From Acidobacteriota bacterium (lineage in GTDB: Bacteria; Acidobacteriota; Blastocatellia; Pyrinomonadales; Pyrinomonadaceae), in NCBI GenBank assembly GCA_031413075.1, contig JANOEF010000568.1, forward strand, positions 1 through 45,452: DNA of 45,452 nt, written 5' to 3'. Positions 2,818-45,452 of the stretch are shown in pieces. The position numbers and the translations under genes were made by a program. Position 1 is the stretch's first letter. Each line of letters begins with the position of its first letter. The notes under the pieces are model-generated. The model did not search any database, had not been told where the DNA came from, and saw nothing but the letters and a program-made list of their open reading frames with translations.

Positions 2818-3034
2818 GTAATTGGTAATTGGTAATTGGTAATTGGTAACTGGTAACTGGTAATTGGTAATTGGTAATTCGTAATTCGTAATTGATAATT
2901 CGTAATTGGTAATTGGTAATTGGTAATTGGTAATTGGTAATTGGTAATTGGTAATTGGTAATTCGTAATTCGTAATTGGTAATTGGTAATTGGTAATTGG
3001 TAATTCGTAATTCGTAATTCGTAATTCGTAAATT
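2818..3034. repeat. 31-unit heptanucleotide tandem array (GTAATTG / GTAATTC, few variants)
   Basis: Counted unit by unit with strict 7-bp register from 2818 to 3034. It lies between the FtsX permease stop (3061) and the btaA start (2799). Confidence 0.95.
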
Positions 3035-4161: not shown

Positions 4162-4173
4162 AAGATAAAAGAC

Positions 4174-4201
4174 GAATTACGAATTACGAATTACAAATTG
4201 C
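4174..4201. repeat. Inverted copy of the GTAATTC heptamer array (GAATTAC x3 plus one degenerate unit)
   Basis: Read directly: gaattac gaattac gaattac aaattgc. This is the reverse complement of the 2818-3034 unit, immediately upstream of the permease ATG. Confidence 0.9.
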
Positions 4202-4266
4202 GAAAAAGCGGCAGCTCCTTTCTATTCCGTCCTTTTAAAATTCATAAATTAAAATGACTTCCCGCG

Positions 4267-9957: not shown

Positions 9958-9960
9958 ATA

Positions 9961-9992
9961 AAGTGAAAAAGTGAAAAAGTGAAAAAGTGAAA
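9961..9992. repeat. 4 x 8-bp tandem repeat AAGTGAAA
   Basis: Read directly. It starts 4 nt upstream of the membrane-protein ATG (minus strand), where an RBS would sit. Confidence 0.9.
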
Positions 9993-10031
9993 GAGTTTGA
10001 ACCTAACTGTTCAAACATTCTTTCTCTTGAT

Positions 10032-12692: not shown

Positions 12693-12756
12693 AATGAATC
12701 AGTGAATCAATGAATCAATGAATCAATGAATCAATGAATCAATGAATCAATGAATC
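12693..12756. repeat. 8 x 8-bp tandem repeat AATGAATC, with the last unit containing the kinase start codon
   Basis: Read directly. Two further ATTGAATC units lie at 12643-12658. Confidence 0.95.
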
Positions 12757-14933
12757 TGGAAAGTCTGATCGGGCAGACGCTCGATACCAAATATTTAATC
12801 GAAAGAGAACTCGGCCGCGGCGGAATGGGGGCGGTTTATCTGGCCACTCATATCGGTACGGAACGCCCGGTGGCTTTAAAGGTAATCGTCCCGCAATTTA
12901 TGCAGCGGGCGGAGTTTGTCGAACGATTCCGCCGCGAGGCCCGGGCCGCCGGGCGGCTGCGTCACCCGAACGTGGTTGACGTGACAGACTTCGGTTTTGC
13001 TGAGACTTCACAGGGTCGAGTGGCCTATCTCGTCATGGAATATCTCGACGGTTGCACGCTTGGCGAGATTTTGGATGAAGAAAAACAATTGCCTCTGGGG
13101 TGGACGCTCGATATTTTGGAACAGATCTGTTCGGCCGTGCACGAAGCTCATCAGCAAGGCATCATTCACCGGGACTTAAAGCCTGACAATATTTGGCTCG
13201 AACCTAATCAGCGCGGCGGTTACACGGTCAAAGTGCTGGATTTCGGAATTGCCAAACTCGAAGAGCCGACGAGCGCAGGCGGTGCGCCCCCCGAACTTAA
13301 TCCAACCACCACCCTTGCGACTCAATTGTTTCATCAAGGCGAAACTTTAGCGGATCAAACTAATGCCCAGACGCTCATCGAAAATCGCGGCGCGACCCTG
13401 ATTGGCGAAGCCGGGACTCTCATTCAAACCACGGATGACGAAAAAGGAACGGCAATTTTTCCGGTCGCTGAAATTTCGTCCGAAGAGGGAACCGCGATTT
13501 TTGCAAAGCCGGAAAATGGCACGCAGCTGATTGAAAAAGACGAGAAAGGGACCCGGTTGATTTCAAAGGCCGATGAGACCGATCGAGATTCTGCCAATTC
13601 TTCGACTTCTGCTTTAACCCGGGTTGGCGCGGTTCTGGGCACTCCGCTCTATATGTCTCCGGAACAATGTCGGGGCGAAAAGCTTTCGCCGCGCTCCGAC
13701 ATTTACAGTTTGGCCGTCATCGCCTATCAAATGCTATCGGGTAAAACTCCTTTTACCGGGGATTTTACGACCGTGATGGATTCGCACAAAGAGATTGCGC
13801 CGCCGCCGCTGGAGGCGAAAAGAGTTCCCAAAAAGGTCAAAAAGGTTCTGTTTTCGGCGTTGGCCAAAGAAAAAGATGAGCGTCCGCAAACGGCCGAAGC
13901 TTTTGCCAGTAAGTTGCGTTCGCATTCAGAAGGAATCGGCGCCTTATTTAGGAACGCCGTGACCATTTACGGCGAACATCTGCCAAAATTTTTACTGCTC
14001 TCTTTAATTTTGGCGACGCCTTTTTTTGTCACCAATTTTATCAAAGTATTGGTTGATTTATTGCTGGTGACAGAGATTTTAGCCGATGGGACGAGTTGGA
14101 CAATTATCAGGGTTGTGCTGGGGTTTGCCGATTTCTTTGTCAAAATGTTTTATTCAACTTTGTTAGTTGGCGCGACTACCTGGATTGTGTCCCAAATTTT
14201 GGCAGTTCCACTGCGTCCATTAACCCTCAAATCTGCTTTTACCGAGTTAAGAAAAAGCTGGAAATCGCTTTTAAAAACCGTTACGTTTTCTACTTTGATA
14301 GCGTTATTGGGATTTGCTTTTTGCTTTTTTCCGGGGCTGTATCTTTCAGCCAGGTATATGTTGATCGCTCCTTCGATAATGATGGAAGGTTTAAGCGGGA
14401 GAGCCGCTTTTCGGCGTTCGGTAGAACTGGTTAATCGTTCTTTTTTGACCGTGTTGGGCACCGCCCTAATCGTTTATTTGATTCCAACCATTTTAGCCTT
14501 TGTCATAAGTTTTGCTATTCAGGGAACCATCAAAGGTTTTATGAATCAACCGCTTGAAAGGGCAAAAGTTGAGTCGGAAAAAGCAACAGAGGACGGTGTC
14601 AATATCTCAGTCGGACCTCGCGGAGTAAAAGTTTCCGGTAGCGAAGAATCTGAAGAAGACAAACAAAGAAGAAAAAGAATTGAACGCAGAGTCGGAATCG
14701 GACAAGGCATTTTTGAACTCATTTGGATGCCAATAATTTTTGTCCTTTCGTCTTTCACGTCTGTAATTACAGCATTACTTTACTTTAAAACCCGACAGGC
14801 CGGCGGCGAATCTATGCAGGAGTTATTGGCAAAATTTGAAGATGTCGAACATCCTCGCAGTAATTGGCAACATCGAATCCGGGAGCGTCTGATTCAGTCG
14901 GGAAGATCCAATAGCACAGAAAAAAGGCAATGA
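12750..14933 (+). CDS. Hanks-type Ser/Thr protein kinase with a giant activation-loop insert and a polytopic C-terminal membrane domain
   Basis: Kinase motifs GRGGMGAVY, ALKVI, HRDLKPDNIWL, DFGIAKL and GTPLYMSPE. The C-terminal ~330 aa contain several TM helices. Confidence 0.9.
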   Translation: MNLESLIGQTLDTKYLIERELGRGGMGAVYLATHIGTERPVALKVIVPQFMQRAEFVERFRREARAAGRLRHPNVVDVTDFGFAETSQGRVAYLVMEYLDGCTLGEILDEEKQLPLGWTLDILEQICSAVHEAHQQGIIHRDLKPDNIWLEPNQRGGYTVKVLDFGIAKLEEPTSAGGAPPELNPTTTLATQLFHQGETLADQTNAQTLIENRGATLIGEAGTLIQTTDDEKGTAIFPVAEISSEEGTAIFAKPENGTQLIEKDEKGTRLISKADETDRDSANSSTSALTRVGAVLGTPLYMSPEQCRGEKLSPRSDIYSLAVIAYQMLSGKTPFTGDFTTVMDSHKEIAPPPLEAKRVPKKVKKVLFSALAKEKDERPQTAEAFASKLRSHSEGIGALFRNAVTIYGEHLPKFLLLSLILATPFFVTNFIKVLVDLLLVTEILADGTSWTIIRVVLGFADFFVKMFYSTLLVGATTWIVSQILAVPLRPLTLKSAFTELRKSWKSLLKTVTFSTLIALLGFAFCFFPGLYLSARYMLIAPSIMMEGLSGRAAFRRSVELVNRSFLTVLGTALIVYLIPTILAFVISFAIQGTIKGFMNQPLERAKVESEKATEDGVNISVGPRGVKVSGSEESEEDKQRRKRIERRVGIGQGIFELIWMPIIFVLSSFTSVITALLYFKTRQAGGESMQELLAKFEDVEHPRSNWQHRIRERLIQSGRSNSTEKRQ

Positions 14934-16768
14934 AAATTCAAAATTCAAAATTCAAAGTTCAAAATTCAAAATTTGGATGGCTGGTTTTACTGTTCATCGC
15001 CTGCTCTTTTGAGCTGACTGCCAACGCCCAGACTTTTCAGCGGGATTTCAAACTAAAAGCAGGCGGACAGGTTGAAATTATCAATCTTTACGGACGGGTC
15101 AAAGTCGAAGCCAATGAAGGAAACGACGAGCAAGTCCGGCTTAAAACGGAAAGTAAACAGGTCTTGACGGACAAAGATTTTGAAATCAAAGCTTCTGCTG
15201 GCCGGATAAAAATCAGCTTCACTCCGGCTAACGAAAAAGCAAGGGCGGATTTAGTTGTTTCGGTGCCGGAGCGGATTCGGCTCAAAATCGAAACCGAAGC
15301 AGGCGAAGTGGCCATTAACGGCAATCTGGAATCCGCCGAAGTTTTGACTGATACCGGAACAATTTCGACTAACATCCCGCTCTTAGATTTGAAATATGAG
15401 TTTTGGTGGACTCAGTCGCGTCCGCGCATGGTGAGCGATGTCGAGATTGAAAAAGTCCGGGAACGAATCGGCGGAAAATTCTCGGTCATCGGAAAATACT
15501 TTGATGAGGAGGCTCTGGCACAAAGAGCGGCAGACGAAAAAGAGCAAGCAGAGAAGGAACAGGAGAATCCGGATACTAAAACCTCAGGCAATCCAAAATC
15601 CAAAATCCAAAATCCAAAACCGACCGCGATTTCCTTGAAATTCTCGACTGCCCGCGGAATTGTTTTGCTCAATGTGAGCCCTTCGGAGGTTTCGTCCGAT
15701 TTACGGGAGCGTCCGCTGACCGAAGCCGCTAAAGCCGTTATCCGGAGCGGTGATTCGCTCCTCATGGATGCAATTCGCCGAACCAGTCCCAAATATTTTG
15801 GCGATTATCTGAAAACGCTTCCGCCGCGCCGGACTTCGCCTAATCTCAATGATCGTCCGAAAGACGTTAATGCTTCTGACGCCAAGATCAAACAAGTCGT
15901 GGCGAGAGTCGTGGACAACGATAATCGGGCCATCAGCGGACTCGAAAAAAAAGATTTTTCCCTGACCGAAAAAGGGATTGAACGCGAAATTTTATCGGTT
16001 AAACCGGTCACTGCGCCGTTTAATTTGGTTTTAATGCTGGACGTTTCGGGAAGCATCGAAAACTATGTTAATTTTATCCGCAAAGCCGCCCGTAATTTTC
16101 TCGGGACGATGAGTCCGAACGATCGGATTGCAATCGTTATTTTTAATGATGACGTTAAGCAAATTGCGACTTTCACTACCGATCGAGGACAGCTTTCCGA
16201 ATCTCTCGACAGTTTTGATGCCGGCGGCGGCACAGCCTATTTCGACGCCATAGCCTATTCATTGGCCGAAACTTTGAAACCGTTCAAAGGTGAACGGACG
16301 GCGGTGGTCATTCTCTCGGACGGTGACGATAATCGTTCATTTTTACCGTTTGACTCTCTGCTGGGTTCGATTCAGGAAAGCGGGGCCTTGATTTATCCGC
16401 TTTATGTTCCCTCAGCTCTGGTCGCGGCCTCGGCCAACCGAAATTGGACCGAATCGGCTGACCCGTTGCGGACTCGTTATATGGGTTTGACCTCAAAAGC
16501 CGAAGGCGAAGGCACTCGACTGGCCAAGGTTTCGGGCGGGGTTTATTATCCGATCCGCCAACTTAATGACCTGCAAAAGGCTTATGAAGACATCGTGGTT
16601 CAGCTTCGCACGGCATATACCATTACTTATCGCTCAGAGACGACGGACACCAAAGATTCCGCTTCGCCGCGTCTGAGAGTAAAAGTTAACCGGGAAGGAG
16701 TTTTTGTCAATCTCGGTGCCGTAACGCCGGTTCTGGATAATCAAATAAGTTTTTTGCCGGGAAGATAA
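14930..16768 (+). CDS. Secreted VWA-domain protein with an N-terminal DUF4097-like beta domain
   Basis: MIDAS elements LMLDVSGSI, GGGTAYFDAI and ILSDGDDN, plus a signal peptide WLVLLFIACSFELTANA. The ATG overlaps the kinase stop (ATGA). Confidence 0.85.
   Translation: MKIQNSKFKVQNSKFGWLVLLFIACSFELTANAQTFQRDFKLKAGGQVEIINLYGRVKVEANEGNDEQVRLKTESKQVLTDKDFEIKASAGRIKISFTPANEKARADLVVSVPERIRLKIETEAGEVAINGNLESAEVLTDTGTISTNIPLLDLKYEFWWTQSRPRMVSDVEIEKVRERIGGKFSVIGKYFDEEALAQRAADEKEQAEKEQENPDTKTSGNPKSKIQNPKPTAISLKFSTARGIVLLNVSPSEVSSDLRERPLTEAAKAVIRSGDSLLMDAIRRTSPKYFGDYLKTLPPRRTSPNLNDRPKDVNASDAKIKQVVARVVDNDNRAISGLEKKDFSLTEKGIEREILSVKPVTAPFNLVLMLDVSGSIENYVNFIRKAARNFLGTMSPNDRIAIVIFNDDVKQIATFTTDRGQLSESLDSFDAGGGTAYFDAIAYSLAETLKPFKGERTAVVILSDGDDNRSFLPFDSLLGSIQESGALIYPLYVPSALVAASANRNWTESADPLRTRYMGLTSKAEGEGTRLAKVSGGVYYPIRQLNDLQKAYEDIVVQLRTAYTITYRSETTDTKDSASPRLRVKVNREGVFVNLGAVTPVLDNQISFLPGR
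14933..14974. repeat. 6-unit heptamer microsatellite AAAATTC in codons 2-15 of the VWA gene
   Basis: Read directly. It encodes KIQNSKFKVQNSKF, the charged n-region of the signal peptide. Confidence 0.9.
15590..15617. repeat. 4 x heptamer AATCCAA inside the VWA gene
   Basis: Read directly. It encodes NPKSKIQNPK and is the reverse complement of the btaB heptamer. Confidence 0.9.
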
Positions 16769-19698: not shown

Positions 19699-20568
19699 TT
19701 ATTTTTCAGCTTTTTGCGCTTTTTTCTCAATATCTTTAACTATTCGGATCGCGTGATTGCGGGCAATCAACGGGATTCGTTCATCGTTACTCAATTCCTT
19801 TAACAACGGAAGCATTTGCGAAGGGTCGGAAATTTCGTCGCGTCTGAGCAGGGAATCAAGCTTGTCCATCAGCCCGGGGGCTTCGAGCGGTTGATTTTCC
19901 CGCGCGACCGAAATATCAAAATACCAAATAAATTGTTCACTGATTCTTCGGTATTCATCCGTTAGAGACTTGGCCTCTTTGTTCTCCGTCCAGTTGTATT
20001 TAGCGGTTCTTTCCTTGCCAGCTTGGCGGAGTGTCACCGTGTAATTACCGAGATGCCCGTAATCTCGGGTGGGGGATTGATAAATTTCGGTTGAATCCAG
20101 AAAATTGAGCGCTTGAAAAACTTTATTCAATTTTTCGAGCGTGACGGTCGAGAGTTGAAGCGGATCCGAGATGGGTTCGCCAAAGTCTTTATGTTCAAAA
20201 GTCATTTTCCCTTTTCCGTTTTCATCGTGCTCGATAATAACGGATTTAATGACAAAATTCGGTTGCGAAAACTCATAGACAAAAGGGTATTTGATCTCTA
20301 CCGGCTTCGCCTTGGCAACATTTCTTTCAGCCTGATTTTTCTTCTGAGGTTCGTTTGTTTGAACGGTTTGGTCTTCGGGACGCTCATTTTTCTTGGGCGG
20401 CATCGGAGTCGGCACCACTTCTTCGGTCGGTGTTGAAACAGGTTGCGTAATTACCGCGGTGGTAGTTGTTTTCTTGGCCGGCTTCGTCGCCGGTTTTTTC
20501 TTGGTCTGGGCAAAGGACGAAACCGATAAAAGTAAAATAATGGGGACAAAAATAAATATTTTTTTCAT
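19699..20568 (-). CDS. Secreted hypothetical protein
   Basis: Signal peptide MKKIFIFVPIILLLSVSSFA, a T/P/K-rich linker and a ~190-aa domain with no motif I recognise. The ATG overlaps the Uma2 stop. Confidence 0.6.
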   Translation of the reverse strand: MKKIFIFVPIILLLSVSSFAQTKKKPATKPAKKTTTTAVITQPVSTPTEEVVPTPMPPKKNERPEDQTVQTNEPQKKNQAERNVAKAKPVEIKYPFVYEFSQPNFVIKSVIIEHDENGKGKMTFEHKDFGEPISDPLQLSTVTLEKLNKVFQALNFLDSTEIYQSPTRDYGHLGNYTVTLRQAGKERTAKYNWTENKEAKSLTDEYRRISEQFIWYFDISVARENQPLEAPGLMDKLDSLLRRDEISDPSQMLPLLKELSNDERIPLIARNHAIRIVKDIEKKAQKAEK

Positions 20569-21251
20569 TGTAATTCGTTCAAATGTTGGCGAAACTCTTT
20601 TAACGCCAGAGTTTGTCCTTTTTCCCGACTTAATTTCAGGTATTCTGTTAATTTTTCAGCCGAAAGTAACGGCAAAGAAAAGCTGTGTGAGATTTGATGA
20701 TACTTTTTGCCCCTGAGTTTGTTAAAGGAAATTTTTTTGCCGTCAAAAACCCAGACTTCAGGAACTTTGAGGGCTGAATAAATCGGGAATTTATCGAGCG
20801 AATTAGTAGTTACGTCAATTTCAACAGCTAAATCAGGAGCGGGAAACTCGTTTGCCTTGATTTTTGTTCCAATAATTTTTTGAGCAGATTGAATGTAATA
20901 ACATTCATCCGGTTCAAGTCCTTTTTCCAAAAAATCGCGCCGAAAGGTGGTTGATTTTCGACCTTCGAGGTTTAAATTAAACTGCTCGCAATAAGCGCGT
21001 ACAAAATCGTGAATTGAGAAGCTGTATGATTCGTGTTCCGGAGTTGGCGGCATAATTTCTAATTTCCCCTCATTGTAAGCTAAACGCCATCCAGCCTTTT
21101 CGGCAAAATCTTCTAAGAAAAGTTCGTATTCTTTCCAAGAAACATCATTGAGCAAAATCCGTCTGCCACTATCCGCAGTTAAAAGATTAATCGCCGTGAA
21201 CTTGTCCAAGACAAAATTTTCAGTTGCAATTACGCTCATTTTTTTTACCAC
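20565..21251 (-). CDS. Uma2-family (DUF820) PD-(D/E)xK endonuclease
   Basis: Uma2 core ...EGKLEIMPP...HE...PDLAVEIDVTTNS... The start is either GTG 21251 or ATG 21239. Confidence 0.8.
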   Translation of the reverse strand: MVKKMSVIATENFVLDKFTAINLLTADSGRRILLNDVSWKEYELFLEDFAEKAGWRLAYNEGKLEIMPPTPEHESYSFSIHDFVRAYCEQFNLNLEGRKSTTFRRDFLEKGLEPDECYYIQSAQKIIGTKIKANEFPAPDLAVEIDVTTNSLDKFPIYSALKVPEVWVFDGKKISFNKLRGKKYHQISHSFSLPLLSAEKLTEYLKLSREKGQTLALKEFRQHLNELQ

Positions 21252-21367
21252 AAAGTCATTTTACCACATTCGTTACAGTGAAAAAGCGGAAAAATAGCAA
21301 AGTAAAAAAGTGAAAAATCTGCTCTTTTGATAAACTCTGTGCCTTTACCAGACTCAATCAAACTTTT

Positions 21368-21409
21368 TCACTTTTCACTTTTCACTTTTCACTTTTCACT
21401 TTTCACTTT
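21368..21409. repeat. 6 x heptamer TCACTTT (reverse complement AAAGTGA)
   Basis: Read directly. It starts 5 nt after the smc stop. Related inverted units (gtgaaaaag, agtgaaaaa) lie at ~21279-21320. Confidence 0.9.
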
Positions 21410-21413
21410 TAAG

Positions 21414-24400
21414 CTATTCAAATCTCACCGAAACAACTTTAGAAACTCCGGCCTCTTCCATTGTCACGCCATACAGAGCTTTAGCGGATTCCATTGTTCG
21501 TTTGTTGTGCGTGATGACGATAAACTGAGTTTTTTCGGACATTTGCGCGATTTTATCAACGAATCGTCCGACGTTGGCGTCGTCCAGCGGTGCATCAACT
21601 TCGTCCAATAAACAAAACGGCGACGGACGATATTGGAAAATCGCCATGACCAACGCGATAGCGGTCATGGCTTTTTCGCCGCCCCGAAAGGAGCAGAATA
21701 TTTTGCAGCCGTTTGCCCGGCGGCTGGGCGACAATTTCGATGCCCGATTCTAAAATGTCATCGGCTTCGAGTAAGACCATTTCGCCTTTTCCGCCCCCAA
21801 AAAGTTCAAGGAAAAACTCTTTGAAATAGCCGTTGACCGCATGGAAAGCCTCACGAAAACGCTCGCGTGAACGCTGTTTAATCTCGCGCAGAGCCTCTTC
21901 GGCTGAATTGATGCTGTCAATAATGTCCTGGCGCTGCGAAGTCAAAAACAAAAGCCGTTCTTCGGTTTCGCTCAACTCTTCGAGGGCCAGCATATTAACG
22001 GCTCCGAACCCCTCAATCCGGTGGCGCGAACTTTCTACTTCGCGGCGCGCATGTTCTAAATCAAAAGTGTCTGCAACTTCAATTTGCTCAACTATTTCAA
22101 CCAAAGAATGATTCAATTCCTGCAAACAATTTTCGTTCAGATTTTGCAGCCGAGTGATTGATTCAGCTTTTTTGATCTCGATGGTTGCCCGCGAATTCCG
22201 GGCCTCGGCCGAGCGTTGGTTGAGTAAGGCCAGTTCTTCTGACATTGCGTCGGCCTCTTGGCGTTCATTTTTCAGATTTGTAATCGCCTCATTAAGTTCG
22301 TTTTGCTCCTCATTTTCCTCGGACTCGGAACTCGTAGTTTTGCTGGTAATTTCAGCAATCGAAGCATTTAAGGCGTTGAGAGTGTTTTCTGATTCGATGA
22401 TTTCGAGACTTTGGCGATTGAGGCGTGATTCGATTTCGGATCGTTCTGATTCAACCCGGCGGAGCGCAGTCTGGGCCGAACGGCGACGCTCGGCGGCCAC
22501 GCCGGCCAGAGTTCTTTTTTCGTTGACGAGCGCATTTTCCGTCTCAACTTTGTTTCGTGCAACGCCAATGTTCTCAGATATTTGCGCTAATTTATCCGCT
22601 GCCGATTTTCTGGCTAATTCGGCTTTTTGGGCATTTGATTTTGCGTCTTTTTGCCGTAAAACTAATTCGGCGAGTTCGTTTTCAATCTGTTTTGTTTCCT
22701 CTGAAACTACTTTTTTGTGACGTTCGGCTCGTTCTAATTCCTGAGCAAGTGATTTGGCTTGAATTTCCTGGGATAACAACTCGCGCTCTGCCGTCGTGAT
22801 AACCGCTTGCAGTTCGGTTAGTTGCGAATCTTTGACGGCGAGTTTTCGGCGCACTTCGGCAATTTCTTGTTCGCTCTTTTCAACCTCTTTAACCTGTTTT
22901 TCGCTGTTGGCCTGCAACTCGCGCAATTCGCGTTTGAAGCCTAAAAGCGAGGAATTTTTTTCATTCTGCTGCGCTTTGCCGCTCACAAAAAGTTTGTTGC
23001 AGAAAACCAAATCACCGTCACTTGTCACAAATGACTGAGCTTTAGCGTCATCAAAATTATCAACCAACTGCGCCGACATCTCACGCGGAAAAACCTCACT
23101 CAAAAGACTCAATAAACCATCAGAAACGCCAAGATAATTTGCGGCTTTGGACTTTGGACTTTGGACTTTGGATTTTTGACCTTGCACCAAAATGCTTATT
23201 CTTCCAACATTATTTTCGCCGACATATTTGGCGACCCGGCGGGCATCGGCTTCGGTTTCGACCAAAATTGTTTGTAAATATGCCCCAAAAAGATTTTCCA
23301 CCGCTCTTTCGGCCGATTGTTCAACCGTCAGTTTATCGGCCAAAGTTCCCAACAGATTGACTCCGATGTGGTCTTGTTCAGCGAAAATCTTTTGCACATT
23401 AGGGGTATAGACGGCACGCTTGGCATCGAGTTCCCGGAGCGTTTCAAGCCGGTGTTTAGTGCGCGAAAACTCTTCGCGGAGTTTAGTCAGAGACTTTTCG
23501 TCCAACTGTAAAGATTGTTTTAGCTCGCCGACTGCCTCTTGCTGCTCACGTTTTTCGCTTTGTAATTTAGAAACCGTTTCCCGGATTTGGGTGATTGATT
23601 TTTCCAGCGTTCGGCTCCGGACAAGATGTTCTTCGTGAGTTTCTTCGGCCCGCTCACCTTCGCGTTTGAGTCCTTCGAGTCTTTCGAGCAATCTTTCGGA
23701 AGTATTTTCCAGTTGCCGTTCAATTTCGGCAAATCGCTCGACGGCCGCAGTATGAGTCAAAAGCTCATTTCGATATTTTTCGATTTCTGCCTCTATCTCT
23801 CTTAATTCATTGAGTTTAGTTTGATATTTTTGTTCGGCTTCGCGCAGTGAAAGTTCTTCCCGTTCCGCCTCAGAGCGTTGGATTTTGTCGTCTTTTTCGA
23901 GTCGTTCAACTTCGGCTTTAATCAACCCCAAACGAGTCTCAAGCGATTCAACCTCGCCTTGCAAAATCAAAGAACGACTTTGTACATTGTTCAATTGCTC
24001 CTGTTTATAAACGAGTTCACGCGAATTTCGGTCGCGTTGTAAGGCGTTTTCGGCGTGTTGTGAGCGCAGCGCCGCCAAGATTTCTTCGGCTTCACGCGCC
24101 TGGTGGGTAGATGCCCGGAACGCCTCATCTTTGGTGGCGACTTCGGAAAACAGATTGCGTTCGAGGGTGACGGCCGTTTCGAGTTTATCTTCTAACTCAT
24201 TGACTAATTCGGTCAAAAACCTTCCTTCGGCGGCAAAAACCTGCCTCAGGAGTTCGCGCAATTCATCACGTAAAACTTTGTAGCGGCGAGTCTTAGAGGC
24301 CTGACGGCGCAACGAGTTGGCTTGTTTATCAATTTCTTCGACAATGTCAGAAATTCGTCGAAGATTTGTTTTGGCTGATTCCAGACGGGCTTCGGTGGCT

Positions 24401-25671
24401 CGTTGACGGGTGCGAAATTTGGAGATTCCGGCGGCTTCTTCGATCAAACTGCGCCGGTCTGACGGTTTGGCGGACAGAATTTGTCCGATCCGCCCTTGTT
24501 CAATGATGGCGTAATGCGCACCCGAAAGCCCGGTTCCGGCAAATAAATCCTGAATATCGCGCAGGCGACAAGTTCTGCCATTGAGCAAATATTCACTTTC
24601 GCCTGACAGATACAGCCGGCGAGTAACTGAAACGGCTTCGCCCGGCGCAAAGTCTAAGGCGACCCGGCTTTTGCGCCAATGACGCTTTGACTTGACTTTC
24701 GCCAGCGCGGTTGCCGTGCCGCCGACGCTTTCGGCGCTTTCAGGAACGATTTCGGTTTCGGCCGGTTCGATTAGTGAAACTTCAAATTCTTCGGAGCTGA
24801 CGGCGTGTTCATCAATATCGCCTAAAGCCTCGTCAATATCGCCGAGTTCATCGTCAAAAAACGGAGTTTCATCGCGGACAAGGTGCAACACGACCTCCGC
24901 CATCCCGCTTGGCTTGCGTTTGCTCGTGCCCTGAAAAACCACGTCTTTCATCTCCGCGCCGCGCAGGGCTTTGGCCCGTTGTTCGCCCAGCACCCAGGCG
25001 ATACTTTCGGAAACATTGCTGTTGTGGACAATCATATTTCCTGCGACAAAATTGTGCGTTTCATCAATGCTCAGGTCATAAACCCATTTGTCGGTTGGTC
25101 CAATTTCTTCGATACTAACAATTTCATCAAGGCAAATATCAGATTTCATCAAGGCAAATATCAGTTTCAGCGACATACTTGGCAAATTGTTTGGAACCAC
25201 AATTCCCAATCCGACTCTCAGTTCATCCGCCCGAACTGCTTCAAGTTTTCCTTCTTTCAGAGCAAATAAAGGATGATACGGCGTGGCAGTTATTTCGCGT
25301 CCCGCCCGAGTTCTCACCCGAAGCAGTTTTTCGGTAGTTTCGCGTTTGATGAAGGCCGAAACTTTTCGGTTCTCCAATTTCAAATTAGCTGGATTTAGCG
25401 AAATAATTTCAACATTTTCCGGATTGTCGGAGGTTACGAATCCATCGTCAAATTGCTCTTTGAAAAATGCACCTTGCAAAGCGTTTTCAACAAGTTGACG
25501 AATTTTTACTTCGTCACCATTAGACAAAGTAATGAGAGTGTTACCATCAACACATTTTCCACAACCGTTTGGCCCGACCACAGCCGTAATTCCATCACCC
25601 GTAAATACTATTTCGGTGTAATCGGCGAATGACTTAAAACCCGTAATTTCGAGACGTTGAAGTTTGAACAT
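21414..25671 (-). CDS. smc: Chromosome partition protein SMC, interrupted by an intein and by one frameshift
   Basis: N-terminus [15 protein letters not shown], Walker A GPNGCGK..S, long heptad coiled coils, a hinge, and C-terminal LSGGEKA + [10 protein letters not shown]. It reads through only after removing 25021-25554 and correcting one extra G at 21682-21685. Confidence 0.9.
21682..21685 (-). other. +1 frameshift site (G4 run on the coding strand) inside the SMC LSGG signature motif
   Basis: The coding strand reads ctc ctt tcg GGGG cgg cga aaa. With GGG instead it reads [38 protein letters not shown]. Confidence 0.85.
23146..23180. repeat. 5-unit heptamer microsatellite (TTTGGAC-type) in frame inside smc
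   Basis: Read directly. The minus strand encodes [14 protein letters not shown]. Confidence 0.9.
25021..25554 (-). other. Class-1 mini-intein (178 aa) inserted between K and S of the SMC Walker A motif
   Basis: Intein blocks CVDGNTLI (A, Cys1), [10 protein letters not shown] (B, TxxH), [14 protein letters not shown] (F) and GNMIVHN|S (G, HN plus Ser+1). The flanking exteins join to [21 protein letters not shown]. Confidence 0.85.
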
Positions 25672-26213
25672 TAAATATAGCGAGTTTCCCAATTGAAAAG
25701 CAATATATTTTGTAGTAAAGGCGCATTCAAATCAAGTCAGATGATAAGCTAATTGACTGTAAAGTTATCTTCAAAAAAAATGAGTGATCTATTTCCCGAA
25801 TTTTAGGATTTCCGCATATTAGAAAGCTCACCGGAAAACACAGCGGCAGACGTTATTTCGATATCGCCTTGCCATACATAAAAAGTTGATGAGCTTTCAG
25901 CCCAAGCGAACTCAATCTGTCAAAGATAATAGACATTATTTGAAATAAACTTGAATCAGATTAAACCGAAGATTTGCCCGCTAATGAACGCGAAAAAACG
26001 CGAATAAAATCCTTTTGGTTGGTAAAAAACGAATCAGATTGAACCAAATCTTAAAAAGATTCGCGCCGATTCGGGTGATTCGCGGGCAATTTCTTATTAC
26101 AAATAATCTCTATTGAATTGCTGATTTTGTTTCACCGTGAACCGCCACGCGCTTGGAGTTTGTTCGGCGCAAAATATGCCGATTTTATGTGGTGTCACAC
26201 AGTTTTAGTGATG

Positions 26214-27477: not shown

Positions 27478-28332
27478 ATGACGAAACTCGAATTTATTGC
27501 ACGACAATTGGCCAAAGCTCAAAATAAAAAATATGAACATTATGTTGTCAATCGAATTTGGCATTTGCTTAATGATTTGAATGTTAAAATTGTCACGCAA
27601 CAATTTGTTTCAAGACCAAACGGCAGAGCAATGACTGATATGTATTTTCCTCAAATCGGGATTCATATTGAAGTTGATGAAGGCTTTCATAAAAAACAGA
27701 TTGATGTTGATAAAGTTCGAGAAGCCGATATTATCAACGCAACCGAACACGAAATATTTCGGGTTGACGTTACAAAAAATATTGAGCAAATTCATTTTGA
27801 AATTGATGCAATAGTTGCAAATATTAAAAGAAAAGTTGAAGTCTCACCAACTTTTAAACCTTGGGATTTAGATAAGGAACAGAGTTCGCAAACTTACATT
27901 GACAAAGGCTATATTGACATAAACGATGATGTTGCTTTTAGGACAATGGCAGATGCCGCAAGTTGTTTTGGACGTGATTACAGTAAAGGATTACAACTTT
28001 CTTATTTCAAACATCCAATTGAACCAAACAAGCGATTATGGTTTCCCAAACTTTATAAAAATGATAAGTGGAATAATCAATTATCCACGGATGAAAATGC
28101 AATTATCTCTACTACCGAATCAATGGAAGACTCTAAAGCAAATGTTGATTATATTATTTCTCAGAATCATTACAGCGTGATTGTTTTTGCAAGAGTAAAA
28201 AGTCCGCTTGGAGATACGATGTATCGGTTTAAGGGTGAATATAAAATTGATGAAGAAGCAACAAATTATGAGGTTGGTGGAATTTATCGAAGAATTGCAA
28301 CCCGCGTAAAAACTTATCCAAACAAAGCGTGA
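27478..28332 (+). CDS. Two-domain nuclease: N-terminal Vsr/DUF559-like PD-(D/E)xK domain plus C-terminal beta-rich domain; candidate modification-dependent (type IV, PvuRts1I/AbaSI-like) restriction enzyme
   Basis: The N-terminal half contains TDMYFPQIGIHIEVDEGFHKK, matching the D...E-x-D-x-x-H pattern of Vsr-like nucleases. Size (284 aa) and two-domain layout fit the PvuRts1I family. The region is very AT-rich compared with its neighbours. The family assignment is from memory, not from a search. Confidence 0.45.
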   Translation: MTKLEFIARQLAKAQNKKYEHYVVNRIWHLLNDLNVKIVTQQFVSRPNGRAMTDMYFPQIGIHIEVDEGFHKKQIDVDKVREADIINATEHEIFRVDVTKNIEQIHFEIDAIVANIKRKVEVSPTFKPWDLDKEQSSQTYIDKGYIDINDDVAFRTMADAASCFGRDYSKGLQLSYFKHPIEPNKRLWFPKLYKNDKWNNQLSTDENAIISTTESMEDSKANVDYIISQNHYSVIVFARVKSPLGDTMYRFKGEYKIDEEATNYEVGGIYRRIATRVKTYPNKA

Positions 28333-40350: not shown

Positions 40351-40568
40351 GTTGCCGCCTCGAACTCATCGAGGCCAACGGCGGCGACCCCTTCCGCGAC
40401 TACTCGCTCCCCGAGGCCATCCTCGAACTTCGCCAAGGCGTCGGCCGCCTCATCCGCACCAAGCAGGATCGCGGCATCGTCGTCATCCTCGACCCGCGCG
40501 TGCTCACCAAGAACTACGGGAGCGCATTCCTACGCGCGCTGCCGAAGTGTCCGGTGGAGGTGGTGTGA
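40350..40568 (+). pseudogene. 3' fragment (~70 codons) of a DinG/XPD-like helicase gene
   Basis: ...LELIEANGGDPFRDYSLPEAILELRQGVGRLIRTKQDRGIVVILDPRVLTKNYGSAFLRALP...* matches the extreme C-terminus of DinG-type helicases. Nothing upstream of it is present. Confidence 0.65.
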
Positions 40569-40604
40569 AAGGGCGGCAATGAGATTCTTCTGAATACAAT
40601 TTGA

Positions 40605-41330
40605 TTATCGAGGGCCAGTCGGTCCGGTTGGCCCTGTCGGTTCGGTCGGTCCGGTCGGTCCACTTTGTGTCGTAGGCTCTGTTGGACCAGTAGGACCATT
40701 GGCACCCGCAGCATCGATCATCATGTTGTAGGTCATGCGTAGCGCGTGGAAATCCGCACGGCGCCCTGTTTCATCCTCAAACTCGATCCCGGCTGCTTTC
40801 AGATCATCCCGGAAGCGCGGCATGCGTGGAATGAAGCGGCTGAACACCCTTGCACTTTCAGGCGCTCCCCTGCGCAGATCACGCAGCGCTTCCACGACTT
40901 CAGCATCAATCGGCTGTTCGGCAGACCGCCGGTTTTTTGATACCGAGGCGCGCAGGTGGATCATAGGCCGGTCGCCTTCGAGCGCCACATCGCCCCAAGT
41001 GATTTTCCCCACCTCGCCGCGCCGCAGGCCCGTCTTGATCACCGTCAGATAGACGACGCGGCGGGACTCCGAAACGGCGAGCAACCGGACCGCCTCTTCC
41101 GGAGTCAGCGAGCGGCGCACGAGTGATTTTTCGGCATGGCCACCATTTCCACGACGCTCAGCGGATTGACGGGAATCATCCGCCGCTTCGTCAGCCAGCC
41201 TAGGAGAGCCGATGCAGCCGTGAGATACTCGTTCAGGGTCTTCGGAGACTTGTCCCGGTTTCCTTCGCGCCACTGGCAGAAGGTATCCGCATTGACGTCG
41301 CGCACGAGCGCCCAATCTCCTCGACGGCCA
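40605..41330 (-). pseudogene. Tyrosine recombinase (phage integrase family), lacking its N- and C-termini, frameshifted, with a foreign GPT-repeat tail
   Basis: SAM-like region SPKTLNEYLTAASALLGWLTKRRMIPVNPL (frame A), then a frameshift near 41130-41150. The catalytic region follows: VVYLTVIKTGLRRGEVGKITWGDV...ADFHALRMTY. After ..MIDAAGA the ORF runs into (GPT)n instead of the ..LMRHSD..Y segment. Confidence 0.7.
40618..40707. repeat. 10 x 9-bp periodic repeat (GTCGGTCCG-type), giving G-P-T triplets on the minus strand
   Basis: Read directly in 9-bp register: gtcggtccg gttggccct gtcggttcg gtcggtccg gtcggtcca ... Confidence 0.8.
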
Positions 41331-41354
41331 GCCCATGCCGGAGGCTCCCGACCG

Positions 41355-41833
41355 TGTCTGGGCGGGGATATTACCTTCATCCCCACCAGCGCGGGATGGC
41401 TCTCCCTAGCCGTCGTCATCGACCTCTGCTCGCGCCGCGTCTTGGGTTGGAGTCTCGCCGATCACATGCGCTCGGATCTGGTGCTCGATGCCCTCCACCA
41501 AGCCCTCCAGACGCGCCCCACCGATGGCACCATCTTCCACAGCGAACGGGGCAGCCAATACGGCAGCGCTCCCTTCCGGCAGGCACTCGCCCACGCCGGC
41601 CTCAGCCAGAGCATGTCCGCACGTGCCAACCCTTACGACAACGCTTGGACCGAATCCTTCATCGGAAGCCTCAAGCGCGAGATGCTCCAAGGCGGGTGCT
41701 TTGAGGACGCCAAAGACGCCCGAATCGAAATCTTCGAAATATCGACCGCTACTACAACACCCACCGCAAACACTCCTCCCTCGGTTACCAAACCCCTAAC
41801 CAGTTCGAGGCTAAAATCCACTCAGCCAACTAA
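41355..41833 (+). mobile_element. 5'-truncated, frameshifted IS3-family transposase (OrfB) fragment
   Basis: DITFIPTSAGWLSLAVVIDLCSRRVLGW, HSERGSQYGS (the usual HSDRGSQY Asp is Glu here) and NPYDNAWTESFIGSLKRE. A 1-nt loss near 41738 shifts the frame; the other frame ends IDRYYNTHRKHSSLGYQTPNQFEAKIHSAN*. OrfA, the left end and the inverted repeats are absent. Confidence 0.8.
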
Positions 41834-41857
41834 ACAACAAACCGGTCCAAAAATCGG

Positions 41858-42155
41858 TTGCACTTCAGGGCGCACCGCGATGGAACTGATGCGGCACAGC
41901 GACCCGAAGCTGACGTTCAACAATTACAACGACCGCACGCGGCTGCCGAAGTGGGAGATCGTGAAAAAGCTGCCGGTTCTTTTTTCTACGGACACGGAAA
42001 ACACACGCCAGCGCACACACGTTCCCGAATTTTCCTGTCCTGTCGTGTCACCGGCTGTCACGGATGGGGGAAATGGTGATGAGCCTGAAACCCCCATGGA
42101 TAAAGGCTTCTGGCTCGAAGTGGCTCGAAGTGGCATTGAATGGCACGCACTGTGA
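41858..42155 (+). pseudogene. Detached C-terminal fragment of a tyrosine recombinase
   Basis: ..GRTAMELMRHSDPKLTFNNYNDRTRLP.. is the box II / catalytic-Tyr segment missing from the minus-strand integrase. It ends 11 nt from the 3' end of tRNA-Val. Confidence 0.65.
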
Positions 42156-42166
42156 AAATGGGAAAA

Positions 42167-42241
42167 TGGTGCGCGCTGCAGGGTTCGAACCTGCGACTTC
42201 TTGCGTGTGAAGCAAGCGCTCTACCACTGAGCTAAGCGCGC
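42167..42241 (-). tRNA. tRNA-Val (anticodon CAC), 75 nt with encoded CCA
   Basis: Folded by hand: acceptor GCGCGCT/AGCGCGC, D arm GCTC-AGTGGTA-GAGC, anticodon arm CTTGC-TTCACAC-GCAAG, variable AAGTC, T arm GCAGG-TTCGAAC-CCTGC, discriminator A, CCA. Confidence 0.9.
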
Positions 42242-42502
42242 ATTTCCCGTCGCGGGACGGGGAATAGAAACGGTTTTCCGCAGCGATGCCAGATGAATTT
42301 TCCCAATCCCTGCCGACCGGGCGGTTACCTCGGTCTTGCTGCGTTCCGGTGATTGGTTTGCTTTCGCGGGCGTGGGAAAGAATCTCTCGGACTATGGGTT
42401 CACGAAGCGCAGAGCGAGCCAGGAGAGACTACCGACGGAGGGGCTCAAATCCACAGTGTCCTTCCCTCGCCGTTTCAAATCGCGTTCTCATAGGTAAACC
42501 CG

Positions 42503-42533
42503 ACACGGAGAAACGCACACACGGAGAAACGCA
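42503..42533. repeat. Two direct copies of ACACGGAGAAACGCA just upstream of the second integrase gene
   Basis: Read directly at 42503-42517 and 42519-42533, followed by TTGACA. Confidence 0.8.
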
Positions 42534-42559
42534 TTTGACACCGACGCACGTTATCCCAT

Positions 42560-43590
42560 ATGGCATCGATTCAAAAGGCACCGGGCAAGCCGTTTTACTT
42601 TTGCGCTTTCGCGAGCTGGGACACGGAGGCAGGTCAGTCTCGGCGGCATTTTAAGAGCACCGGCACCGCAAACAGGCGTGAGGCTCTGGAGATCTGCCGG
42701 ACATGGGACAATGCAGCTAAAGCCGCACGCAATGGCAGGCTTACGCCGGACTCCGCTCGGGAGATCATCGCCCGTGGCGTGGCAGACGTGTTCACGGCTG
42801 CTAACAGGGAGCACCTGCCAAGCCGCTCGGTGCGCGACTGGTGCGCGGCATGGCTCGTTACGAAGCGCCTTGAGGCGGCGGAGAACACCATCACCCGTTA
42901 CGCGGGGATCATTGAACGATTCACGGCATTCCTTGGAAAGAAGGCGGACCGCGACCTTGCCAGCGTCACCGCGGCGGATGTTGGCAGCTTTCGGGACGGG
43001 CTTGCAAACGACTTGAGCCGCAACTCAGCGAACCTCGCCGTCAAGACGCTCCGTGTCTGCCTCGGTTCCGCGCTCAAGCAAGGGCTCGTGAAAAGTAACG
43101 TGGCATCGAATGTGGGCTTGCTCAAGGCGCGGGGAGGCGTCCAGAGGCGCGGGTTCACGCTCAAGGAAATTGCGCGGGTGCTCAAGGCGGCGGAAGGCTC
43201 CGAATGGTATGGCATGACGCTCGCCGGCCTCTATTGCGGTGCGCGGCTGGGTGACTATAGCGCGGCTGACATGGCGCTCGGTGGACTTGAGCACCGGGAC
43301 GCTTTCATTCGTCGCCAAAAAGACCGGAAGCCGTGTGTCCATCCCGCTGGCAAAGGCGCTCGTGCATCTCGGACTCGCCGAGGGTTCGCAGGAGTGGAGC
43401 GCGCAATGATGCCCCCGGCGTTCCGCGAAACACGAACAAAGAGGAGCAAGGGACGGATGATTGGATCTGAGCATGCGCTTTTCAGCGGCCCTGCCGCATG
43501 CCCTCCTGCGAGCTTCGGGCAGTCCGGTCCCCACGTCACCCGATCACGCGGGATAACTCTACCCGGTTTGCGACAGGAGTCCCGCGTCAG
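42560..43590 (+). pseudogene. Tyrosine recombinase (phage integrase family) with several frameshifts
   Basis: The N-terminal and SAM-like domains are intact (..TRYAGIIERFTAFLG..VTAADVGSFRD..), as is the start of the catalytic domain, LAGLYCGARLGD. A 1-nt shift near 43255 follows; the other frame reads IARLTWRSVDLSTGTLSFVAKKTGSRVSIPLAKAL.. and stops at 43407-43409. Later segments (..ITRDNSTRF..) are in a third frame. Confidence 0.7.
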
Positions 43591-43616
43591 GCATCTGCAA
43601 TTTCCATTCCGGCCAC

Positions 43617-43931
43617 TCGGATTTTCGTTTCCCAAGTTCGGATTTTCATTTTCCTAGTTCCGATTTTGATTTCCCTGACTCGGAAAATGATTTCCGCGAC
43701 TCGGATTTCTATTTTCCCAACTCGGAAAATGATTTCCCTAACTCCGATTTCTGTTTTCCGAACTCGGAAAATGATTTCCCTAACTCCGATTTCTGTTTCC
43801 CCAACTCGGATTTTCATTTCCGCAGTTGCGGATTCCGTTTTGGCAATTGGGATTTCTGTTCCGGTAATTCGGATTCCGGTTTTCCCAACTGCGATTTGCG
43901 TTTTCCCGGTCAGGAATCGGCCTTTCCCCAT
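43617..43931. repeat. 15 x 21-bp tandem array (consensus roughly TCGGATTTYNNTTTYCCCNAC) with a 42-bp higher-order unit
   Basis: Parsed unit by unit in strict 21-bp register. Units 6+7 and 8+9 are near-identical 42-mers. The A-type units contain GGAAA-N4-TTTCC. Confidence 0.9.
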
Positions 43932-44133
43932 TTCGGAAGCCGGGCCTACGGGGCCGGAAAGTGGACGAGGTATGCGCCTTTTCACCCTCCGCACCAATCA
44001 TTTACGTGGACGCATTCACAACTCCCCGCCGGGGAGCAGGGTCCCGCGCCCATCGCAGACCTGAGCGTTGCCTTTGCTTCACGCAGTAACTGTGGAATTG
44101 CACCGACGGGAAAGTTCCGCCACGTTCGCGGCC

Positions 44134-45234
44134 ATGAAGCCCCTCTGCTGCTTCCTCCTGCTGCTTGCCACCGCAATCGCCGAGCCGCGCACCGTCGTCA
44201 TCGCCGGCAAGGCTTATTCCCGTGCCACCGTCCAGCGCCTCGACGCCTACACTGCGCGCATCGCCCACGCCGATGGTTCCGCCACGATTGCCGCATGGGA
44301 GTTCAGCGAGAGCGACCAAAAGCAATTCGGCTTCGACCCCATCGAGGTAAAGGCCGAGCACACCCGGCGTGGGAAGGAGGCCGACGACGTTACGCAGGCG
44401 CAACTGCGTCGCGAGCGGGCGCGCCTCGCCGCGGAACGTCAGCGCCAGGCCGACGAGCAACAGCGCGCGGACTCCTTACAAAAGCAAAAAGGCGCAGACG
44501 AAGAGCGCCGAATCGCCGAGGAAAAACAGCGCAAGATCGCGGAGATTAAGGAAGGCATCGCACGATACGACAAGGCCATTCCCCGCGCGACCGACGCGCC
44601 GGGGCCACCTTCCTATGTCCCGCCCCCGATTATCATTCCCGGAAGTATTCAGGACGTTCTGATACCGCCGGACCGCCGACCGCAGGGCTACTGGGTCGAG
44701 AACAAAGGAGGATTCAAGTCCGAGCTGATTGCCAATCGGGCCAAACTCGTGCAAGAACTCGAAGCGTTGGAGCCGGGTCCAGTTGCCACAGTGGCGCAAC
44801 CGGCGCCTGTCAAGCCGAAGGCGGCAAACGCCCTGCCACGTTCGCCGACATCGATCATGGCTGGTGTCGAGGAGGAAGTCCGCGCCAAATACGGCGCGCC
44901 TGTCGCGGAGGAAATGCGCGCGCCGAACGTCAAAGCTCTTACCTTCGAAACGAACGGCATCCGCATCGTCGCAATCCTCTACAAAGAACGGGTGATGATG
45001 CTTAGTTACACCCGAAAGAGCAGGACCAAGTTCGACCGGCTTGAAGCCGAAGCCCTCCTCGCCAACCACGGCGGGCCGTGGAAGCATTTCATCGACCCCA
45101 AATGGAACCTCGATTCGTGGAGATTCGGTCGACTCGGAGCATTGCTGGGCCTTGATGGTGGAGTGATCATCATCGACTCTCCCCTCGCGGCGGAGCATTC
45201 CCGCGAAGGTGCTGACTCACTCAAAGGTCTCTAG
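44134..45234 (+). CDS. Secreted hypothetical protein with a central charged coiled-coil region
   Basis: ATG 44134 gives the signal peptide MKPLCCFLLLLATAIA. It is followed by RRERARLAAERQRQADEQQRADSLQKQK..., a Pro-rich linker and a C-terminal domain. Codon usage is GC-rich, consistent with the + strand. Confidence 0.6.
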   Translation: MKPLCCFLLLLATAIAEPRTVVIAGKAYSRATVQRLDAYTARIAHADGSATIAAWEFSESDQKQFGFDPIEVKAEHTRRGKEADDVTQAQLRRERARLAAERQRQADEQQRADSLQKQKGADEERRIAEEKQRKIAEIKEGIARYDKAIPRATDAPGPPSYVPPPIIIPGSIQDVLIPPDRRPQGYWVENKGGFKSELIANRAKLVQELEALEPGPVATVAQPAPVKPKAANALPRSPTSIMAGVEEEVRAKYGAPVAEEMRAPNVKALTFETNGIRIVAILYKERVMMLSYTRKSRTKFDRLEAEALLANHGGPWKHFIDPKWNLDSWRFGRLGALLGLDGGVIIIDSPLAAEHSREGADSLKGL

Positions 45235-45452
45235 CAGCCTTGAGGAGGACGAGGGAAAGAATGACTATTGCATACTGCATCGCCCTTCGGTTTTCCATAA
45301 CGCCGTGCTGCAACTCAGCGGTCTCATTGATACCGACTTCCCGTCCGTCGCCCGGTCCTTTTTTCGAAGGTGTCCGGTGGTTCGCTCCTCCAATCGCCGG
45401 CCTCAATCACCCGCTAATTTTCATCCGCCTCGCATGTTGCACTAGAACCTAG

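Follow-up and report, generated by a model that had tools for sequence, protein, structure and literature searches.

Why does the smc gene of an acidobacterium carry 178 extra codons in the middle of its Walker A motif, and can its product still become an active ATPase? The gene, which encodes SMC, the core ATPase of bacterial chromosome organisation, lies in a stretch of 45,452 nucleotides from an Acidobacteriota bacterium of the Pyrinomonadaceae (contig JANOEF010000568.1 of assembly GCA_031413075.1; this whole stretch is the window in what follows). An original prediction, made by reading the letters, took the insert for a mini-intein. From profile searches, structure prediction and comparison with relatives, we show that the insert is a class 1 mini-intein lodged in the Walker A loop of SMC, and find it likely that it is an immobile descendant, lacking the endonuclease, of a family of ~560-residue LAGLIDADG inteins and that it still splices. 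The host gene and the insertion site are laid out as follows (a slash marks a splice junction throughout).

21414..25671, minus strand: smc, bacterial-type chromosome segregation protein SMC (TIGR02168), interrupted by the intein and, near its 3' end, by a frameshift.
25555..25671, minus strand: N-extein, residues 1–39, ending in GPNGCGK; the empty-site DNA of the intein-free locus L001 aligns with it through the last base.
25021..25554, minus strand: 178-residue class 1 mini-intein, Cys1 to His177-Asn178, identified with PF14890, TIGR01445, TIGR01443, 6rpq, AlphaFold and Foldseek.
25018..25020, minus strand: Ser+1, the C-extein nucleophile and Walker A serine of GxxGxGKS (codon check).

The minus-strand open reading frame (ORF) spanning this region runs over 21595..25692. 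Because the smc relatives likewise open with MFKLQRLE, we took the ATG at 25671 as the conserved start. The raw ORF matches TIGR02168 (SMC_prok_B) with 612 bits (cut-off 567) as well as Pfam SMC_N and SMC_hinge, and the Walker A motif, hinge, signature motif and Walker B of a bacterial SMC are all present, LSGGE being visible in the shifted frame. Once the insert was removed in silico and the frameshift repaired by deleting one G, the joined exteins gave an unbroken TIGR02168 match of 862 bits that reached profile position 1180 of 1181. Removal of the insert also turned a split SMC_N match (E 2.5e-13) into a contiguous one (E 8e-30; residues 4–89 against profile positions 2–86).

The insert comprises exactly 178 codons (534 nt, from 25554 down to 25021); translation and a codon check thus agree with the predicted 178-residue interruption of the SMC P-loop at 25021–25554. 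It splits Walker A exactly between Lys-1 (codon 25555–25557) and the serine (GPNGCGK/C...HN/S), with Cys-3 encoded at 25561–25563; the C-extein of relatives starts at position 37 of the TIGR02168/02169 profiles. Intein-free alleles were found both as the locus L001 and in GTDB genomes. The GTDB scan, which used extein-only patterns and so supplies empty sites but does not show how common the intein is in genomes, returned intein-free SMCs that read GPNG[CS]GKS in 80 of 80 cases among the matches listed, which identifies Ser+1 as the P-loop serine, as had been claimed. At the DNA level L001 aligns base for base with both extein ends at K/S (AAG/AGC versus AAA/AGC); its empty site reads …AACGGCTGCGGCAAG/AGCAATGTCGCG…, and the ligated junction peptide expected from the joined exteins is GPNGCGKSNVSE. 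In ABC/SMC ATPases Mg2+ is coordinated by the Walker A serine, and an unspliced SMC precursor, its P-loop serine split off, can reasonably be taken to be ATPase-dead. A self-excising element in the Walker A loop would make SMC activity dependent on protein splicing.

The SMC head also contains an acidic, low-complexity insertion of ~75 residues outside the SMC profile (window ~24690–24915, minus strand; spliced residues ~90–166). It holds a 21-nt tandem repeat (24812–24857) that encodes GDIDEAL twice, and comparable acidic inserts occur in related acidobacterial SMCs, for example P0008 and P0011.

The insert in the P-loop is a class 1 intein, with matches far beyond chance. Pfam PF14890 (Intein_splicing) covers it with all 155 profile positions (E 1.9e-27, 96.4 bits, cut-off 35.8), and the two intein-specific TIGR models match at its ends (N-terminal TIGR01445, 3.2e-19, 69.7 bits against a cut-off of 24.5; C-terminal TIGR01443, 2.3e-5, 24.5 bits against 15.6), which removes the objection that Hint similarity might be lacking. 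The nearest solved structures by sequence are the PhoCDC21-1 intein (6.6e-30) and the P. abyssi CDC21-1 intein (1.2e-22), followed in the search of the PDB by DnaB, KlbA, RadA, TFIIB and VMA inteins. Blocks A, B, F and G stand in class 1 order and are followed by the terminal HN and Ser+1, so that every landmark that had been read from the sequence was recovered. The catalytic codons are those of Cys1 (25552–25554), Thr91 (25282–25284), His94 (25273–25275), Asp160 (25075–25077), His177 (25024–25026) and Asn178 (25021–25023), and His167 was also confirmed; Cys1, Thr91 and His94 are invariant across the family alignment. A profile built from the family detected no second intein in the 45-kb window. 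Within the insert, two splicing lobes flank a short linker.

25189..25554, minus strand: N-terminal splicing lobe, intein residues 1–122, with block A Cys1 and block B T91-P-Y-H94 (25273–25284).
25135..25188, minus strand: linker at the canonical endonuclease insertion site, intein residues 123–140 (18 residues), where relatives have ~380 more residues.
25021..25134, minus strand: C-terminal splicing lobe, intein residues 141–178, with block F WVYD160LSIDETH167NF and block G GNMIVH177N178.
25121..25164, minus strand: exact 22-nt tandem duplication, CTGATATTTGCCTTGATGAAAT twice (copies 25143–25164 and 25121–25142), from Tandem Repeats Finder and direct reading.

An AlphaFold2 model of the intein (18 sequences) has a mean pLDDT of 91.6 and a pTM of 0.85, with values below 50 only at residues 128–136, and adopts the HINT horseshoe fold. 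In a Foldseek search of the PDB the top 27 matches are all inteins, led by 6RPQ (TM 0.87, 39% identity) and then 6RPP; these two CDC21-1 mini-inteins superpose on the model at TM 0.83–0.88. Residues 18–47 of the N-terminal lobe form a helix and an insertion common to CDC21-1 inteins. Neither Pfam, NCBIfam nor the fold search with the model detected a LAGLIDADG or HNH endonuclease in the 178 residues, which are in any case too few to hold one; hence the element is a mini-intein, as the original prediction had argued from its size.

What happened to the endonuclease can be read from the linker. In relatives the ~380 extra residues at this position include two LAGLIDADG motifs, and the 18 residues that stand there in the window are, by this comparison, the scar of a deleted LAGLIDADG domain. 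It is in this linker that the model drops to low confidence, at residues 128–136 and nowhere else. Tandem Repeats Finder describes the duplication as period 22 with 96% matches, and read directly the two 22-nt copies are identical, on which ground the rearrangement appears to be recent. The opening residues of the C-terminal lobe (SDICLDEI) come from copy 2; copy 1 is translated in a different frame, as LIFALMK, and coincides with the one region that is disordered in the model. Since 22 = 3 × 7 + 1, a single copy would leave the C-terminal lobe out of frame, so that the duplication is needed for the present frame. We considered the duplication as a disruptive mutation and rejected this, the open frame requiring both copies.

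Searches for relatives place the insert in a family. In a word-indexed search of proteins, queried first with the intein and afterwards with a profile, we obtained 47 proteins, nearly all fragments matching SMC_N and Intein_splicing, which NCBI labels "hypothetical protein", "AAA family ATPase" or "LAGLIDADG family homing endonuclease". The taxa represented are Pyrinomonadaceae, Blastocatellia, Chloracidobacterium, Acidobacteria, Ktedonobacterales and a Thermoplasmatota archaeon; the nearest named matches to the window are from Pyrinomonadaceae, Blastocatellia and Chloracidobacterium. A metagenome scan with intein-only patterns found ~24 SMC loci interrupted at GK/C...HN/S by inteins of 170, 214, 254, 257, 263, 543 and 558–561 residues, the long ones carrying two LAGLIDADG motifs (FLGLIIAEG and FLSGLFEGDA; PF14528 also matched). 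HMMER, run exhaustively over 1.84 billion cluster representatives, returned 1,961 matches at E <= 0.001; among the best 150 of these, 66 are SMC-type proteins with an intein from residue ~38–40, and another 50 are MCM proteins, in which the usual point of interruption is GDPGxxK/C. Most SMC inteins of the family are ~560 residues long and bear LAGLIDADG motifs. Six SMC hosts that were profiled include both bacterial SMC_prok_B and archaeal SMC_prok_A, and orthologous inserts retain Cys1, HN and Ser+1; an insert shared by orthologues that lacked these residues would have spoken against an intein.

Remoter relatives (30–37% identity) follow the Walker A lysine of MCM and of a HerA-like ATPase. 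The latter (…VVLVAGKRGSGK/C…HN/SYS; L109–L111, L114 and others) carries 426–441-residue inteins of the wider clade after its Walker A lysine. Judging from these sites, the intein family is tied to the GK/S sites of different ATPases, and the HerA-like and MCM occurrences fit a lineage that has moved from the P-loop of one ATPase to that of another, unrelated one. As judged by the same comparisons, the SMC Walker A site is a recurrent, cross-domain intein site, used in bacteria and archaea by inteins close to those of the MCM P-loop. A phage vector was considered and rejected: a scan of viral contigs gave only relatives of <=30% identity, the inspected junctions were not Walker A sites, and none was in SMC.

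That the SMC ATPase of archaea contains inteins is stated by Novikova et al. (2016; PMC4760082). The original prediction knew of no characterised SMC intein. This holds in that we found neither a characterised SMC intein nor a described bacterial one in the literature searched, which included the main text of PMC4760082; it does not hold for SMC inteins as such, which are known from that text and from dozens of same-site clusters. The SMC P-loop intein allele is widespread in metagenomes and has been mentioned for archaea, and the copy in the window is one new, small member.

Within the family, the descent of the window copy can be followed in stages. A neighbour-joining tree built on the splicing core joins the window intein to that of the locus L179 (100%) and this pair to that of L081 (98%); the bacterial SMC inteins form one clade (71%), with the MCM inteins outside it and two divergent SMC inteins, P0031 (the Thermoplasmatota archaeon) and L104, below it. 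In the extein tree the window groups with L081 (100%), inside a clade with the Blastocatellia metagenome-assembled genome L002 (93%). The lineage of the window forms a size series. The L081 intein has 559 residues and an intact endonuclease; that of L179, which has the same junctions as the window and 82–88% DNA identity to it, has ~279 residues, a remnant in which the LAGLIDADG core is gone and the C-terminal helical part is kept; and that of the window has 178. Other clades pair long with short inteins as well (558 versus 170 residues; 560 versus 271; 448+, a partial sequence with LAGLIDADG, versus 214–254), which implies that the endonuclease was lost several times. The window copy is, on these comparisons, an endonuclease-deleted descendant of the ~560-residue LAGLIDADG family, and we count the decay series as established at the level of sequence. 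The extein tree places L001, which has no intein, within the intein-bearing L088 and L089 (97–100%), so that presence and absence of the SMC intein vary among close relatives.

The L179 intein lies on a 1.1-kb contig (Ga0654608_0178803) and is spread over two frames, one base having been lost in an A-run at nt ~700–740 (GGTAAAACT); for this reason the L179 protein call (P0001) ends inside the intein. As a sign that an ancestral intein was already broken this frameshift is unconvincing: it is the loss of one base from an A-run on a 1.1-kb contig, and both lobes are strongly selected.

Does the window intein still splice? Relative to L179, dN/dS is 0.106 for intein residues 1–117 and 0.02 for the last 36, with 0.03–0.05 in the flanking exteins. 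The splicing lobes have been under purifying selection, as would be expected if SMC function depends on excision of the intein. We infer that the window intein most likely splices, and most likely does so constitutively, by default.

Several observations weigh against this conclusion. At 7 of 68 positions that are strongly conserved in the family the window intein has a different residue (V8I, L51I, T57N, T98A, L107V, A119V and W142L, the last at the start of the C-terminal lobe), L179 at 1 of 66; other bacterial members of the family depart at 0–6, close to the 7 of the window. The dN/dS values are averages across all the divergence that separates the window from L179, and would not register function lost only very recently. 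The linker is a frame-shifted duplicate modelled with low confidence, and artificial deletion of the endonuclease may impair splicing in some inteins (PMC6801210). Finally, the host smc is broken, as sequenced, by a +1 frameshift at 21682–21685; if this is real, selection on splicing is gone.

Given splicing, the course of events would be that of a class 1 intein. The precursor would be translated with 178 residues between Lys-1 and the Mg-binding Ser+1, and the HINT domain would fold. An N-S acyl shift at Cys1, helped by Thr91 and His94 of block B, would be followed by trans-esterification of the N-extein to the hydroxyl of Ser+1 and by cyclisation of Asn178, helped by His177 and by Asp160 and His167 of block F; an O-N shift would then restore GPNGCGK-SNV and, with it, an active SMC head. 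The endonuclease would have been lost stepwise, from 559 to ~279 to 178 residues, the last deletion leaving the 18-residue linker with its frame-restoring duplication. The element would persist because exact deletions are rare and a non-splicing copy would inactivate SMC, which would also account for the strong purifying selection on the two lobes.

The closest known counterparts are PhoCDC21-1 and PabCDC21-1 of the Pyrococcus MCM/Cdc21 protein (6RPQ and 6RPP; Beyer et al., 2019; PMC6801210). Like the window intein they are natural class 1 mini-inteins (164–168 residues) that follow a Walker A lysine (GDPGxxK/C...HN/S) and use Cys1 and Ser+1; they are 32–39% identical to it, and the helix and insertion after block A are found in both. 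They likewise have only a short loop at the endonuclease site. The linker of the window intein is longer, at 18 residues, and is a scar of recent deletion and duplication instead of a loop that has been optimised. Their host is an AAA+ helicase of hyperthermophilic archaea; the window intein sits in an ABC-type SMC, in a soil bacterium that is presumably mesophilic. Sitting in the P-loop of the archaeal MCM helicase, the CDC21-1 inteins splice even at 37 °C (PMC6801210); their splicing has been shown experimentally, whereas the window intein is known here from sequence and model.

Other systems share the host, the site or the arrangement. The SMC inteins surveyed by Novikova et al. (2016; PMC4760082) have the same host protein, but the text names archaeal SMC only and gives neither a site nor experiments, whereas the window host is a bacterial SMC_prok_B. 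The uncharacterised SMC-intein proteins of the databases share the site (GK/C...HN/S) and the intein clade of the window, and are mostly ~560 residues long with LAGLIDADG, against the 178-residue deletion derivative described here. The loci L081, L088–L090, L092, L096 and L098 have inteins of 558–561 residues at the same site and from the same clade, whose splicing lobes are 55–70% identical to those of the window; the SMC exteins of L081 are 65% identical. These long inteins, which presumably are still mobile, keep a stretch of ~380 residues in which two LAGLIDADG motifs and a helical C-terminal part lie, all of it lost in the window copy. Intein 1 of Mycobacterium smegmatis DnaB is likewise bacterial, sits in the P-loop of a DNA-transaction ATPase, starts with Cys1 and has a precursor expected to be inactive until spliced, but it belongs to another intein lineage and its host is a RecA-like helicase. 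Redox and zinc sensitivity have been demonstrated for it (PMC6195587, PMC7360933).

Could the window intein be a conditional switch, a post-translational sensor that keeps SMC inactive, for instance through a reversible Cys-3–Cys1 disulfide or metal binding in GPNGCGK/C? This proposal is compatible with the mini-intein explanation, to which it adds a function, and we consider it unlikely. It would make sense of the P-loop position, where the precursor is presumably ATPase-dead, and of a cysteine three residues ahead of Cys1; the P-loop DnaB intein of mycobacteria is reversibly oxidant- and zinc-sensitive (PMC6195587, PMC7360933, PMC8557812), Novikova et al. argue for selective retention of P-loop inteins (PMC4760082), and in several lineages the intein was kept after the endonuclease was lost. 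However, a neutral element that is hard to delete would persist after loss of its endonuclease anyway, and the grouping of the intein-free L001 with L088 (97% bootstrap) indicates that the intein is dispensable. Cys-3 is a host trait: GPNGCGKS occurs in 38 of 80 intein-free SMCs among the matches listed, and position -3 is C, S or A in alleles with the intein. On the same 38 of 80 we rejected Cys-3 as a co-adaptation to the intein. A sensor role for the SMC intein would be possible but unsupported. Its most specific form, in which the intein would be retained as a reversible post-translational brake on chromosome condensation and segregation, Cys1 being caught under oxidative or metal stress (in a disulfide with Cys-3, for instance) and newly made SMC staying ATPase-dead until relief, we regard as doubtful; if true, it would be the first intein-based regulator of an SMC complex.

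The frameshift raises a different question, namely whether smc has recently become a pseudogene, its intein, marked by the linker scar and by W142L, having lost either the ability or the need to splice. Two features, the frameshift being absent from the original prediction, define the 3' end of the gene.

21682..21685, minus strand: G4 run with one base too many, in the signature motif (LLSGRRKSH instead of LLSGGEKAM).
21414..21681, minus strand: last ~90 smc codons in the shifted frame, with Walker B, the H-loop ITHNK and the stop codon TAG at 21414–21416; this segment restores the TIGR02168 match to position 1180.

The frame upstream of the G4 run ends at 21595, and the frameshift affects 21414–21734, so that smc as sequenced is not a single intact ORF. 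The tblastx alignments of L081, L001, L088, L089 and L002 all change frame in the window at the G4 run, and 5 of 5 relatives are single-frame. A +1 shift within the LSGGE signature motif, the 7 of 68 departures from conserved residues against 1 of 66 in the sister L179, and the frameshift within the intein of L179 itself, on the closest relative contig, are what decay would lead one to expect. Against decay, both frameshifts are single-base changes in homopolymers (G4 in the window, A4 in L179), typical of sequencing or assembly error; one base aside, the frame of 1,418 codons including the intein is open, and the 90 codons beyond the shift are 91% identical to those of L081. The dN/dS values of 0.02–0.11 point the same way, the catalytic residues are all intact, and the 22-nt duplication maintains the frame of the intein instead of breaking it. 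A one-base homopolymer error in sequencing or assembly is the simplest reading of the frameshift, the other choice being a very recent inactivating mutation; decay of the gene and its intein seems improbable to us.

That the insert is no intein at all, but a Hint-fold domain retained after maturation, of the bacterial intein-like (BIL) or another kind, or else an assembly artefact, can effectively be regarded as refuted and is barely conceivable: Hedgehog and BIL Hint structures do appear lower in the fold-search list, but the insert interrupts a conserved protein precisely where two invariant residues of Walker A adjoin, ends in HN followed by a Ser+1 nucleophile, exceeds the cut-offs of both intein-specific TIGR models and has genuine splicing inteins as its closest structures, and the same allele on dozens of independent contigs, with an 82–88%-identical relative that has the same junctions, rules out a chimera. 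BIL domains are Hint domains of variable, non-conserved protein regions, usually without a +1 nucleophile and without ligation. A BIL assignment was rejected on the invariant Walker A neighbours and HN/S; by sequence the BIL structure 2lwy matches only with E 0.055.

As a mini-intein, the element is the smallest member of its size series and combines a fresh deletion and duplication scar with purifying selection. Its family shows repeated endonuclease loss, with a three-stage series clear within one lineage, and the proteins with SMC inteins are mostly mis-annotated in public databases. The SMC intein offers a test case for host regulation by P-loop inteins and, being compact, probably mesophilic and related to the robust CDC21-1 mini-inteins, might be of use in protein engineering; the understanding of inteins or of SMC is unchanged by the find.

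Downstream of smc, a gene for a Uma2-family putative endonuclease (20565–21251, minus strand) stands between smc and the conserved downstream neighbour (19699–20568). In L081, L088 and L089 this neighbour directly adjoins smc, which makes the Uma2 gene look like a local insertion. An ORF at 27478–28332 (plus strand) joins a PvuRts1I-like N-terminal nuclease domain to an SRA domain, the architecture of modification-dependent (5hmC-type) restriction endonucleases.

Towards the end of the window (~40500–45452) the G+C content rises from ~45% to ~59% beside a tRNA-Val(CAC) gene (42167–42241, minus strand). This region holds a truncated Phage_integrase ORF (40605–41336), an rve transposase (41136–42155), an ORF with a SAM-like integrase N-terminal domain (42560–43657) and a tandem array of 21/42/84-nt units (43615–43841), and looks like an integrated, partly decayed mobile element.

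The window is also unusually rich in short tandem arrays of 7–8-nt units (1556–1587, 2818–3031, 4172–4204, 9960–9996, 12693–12756, 14933–14973, 15590–15619, 21365–21410 and 23145–23184). Examples are GTAATTG in 30.6 copies, AATGAATC in 8 and, immediately past the smc stop codon, TTTTCAC in 6.6; several lie at or near gene ends. Such arrays recall the heptamer repeats of some cyanobacteria.

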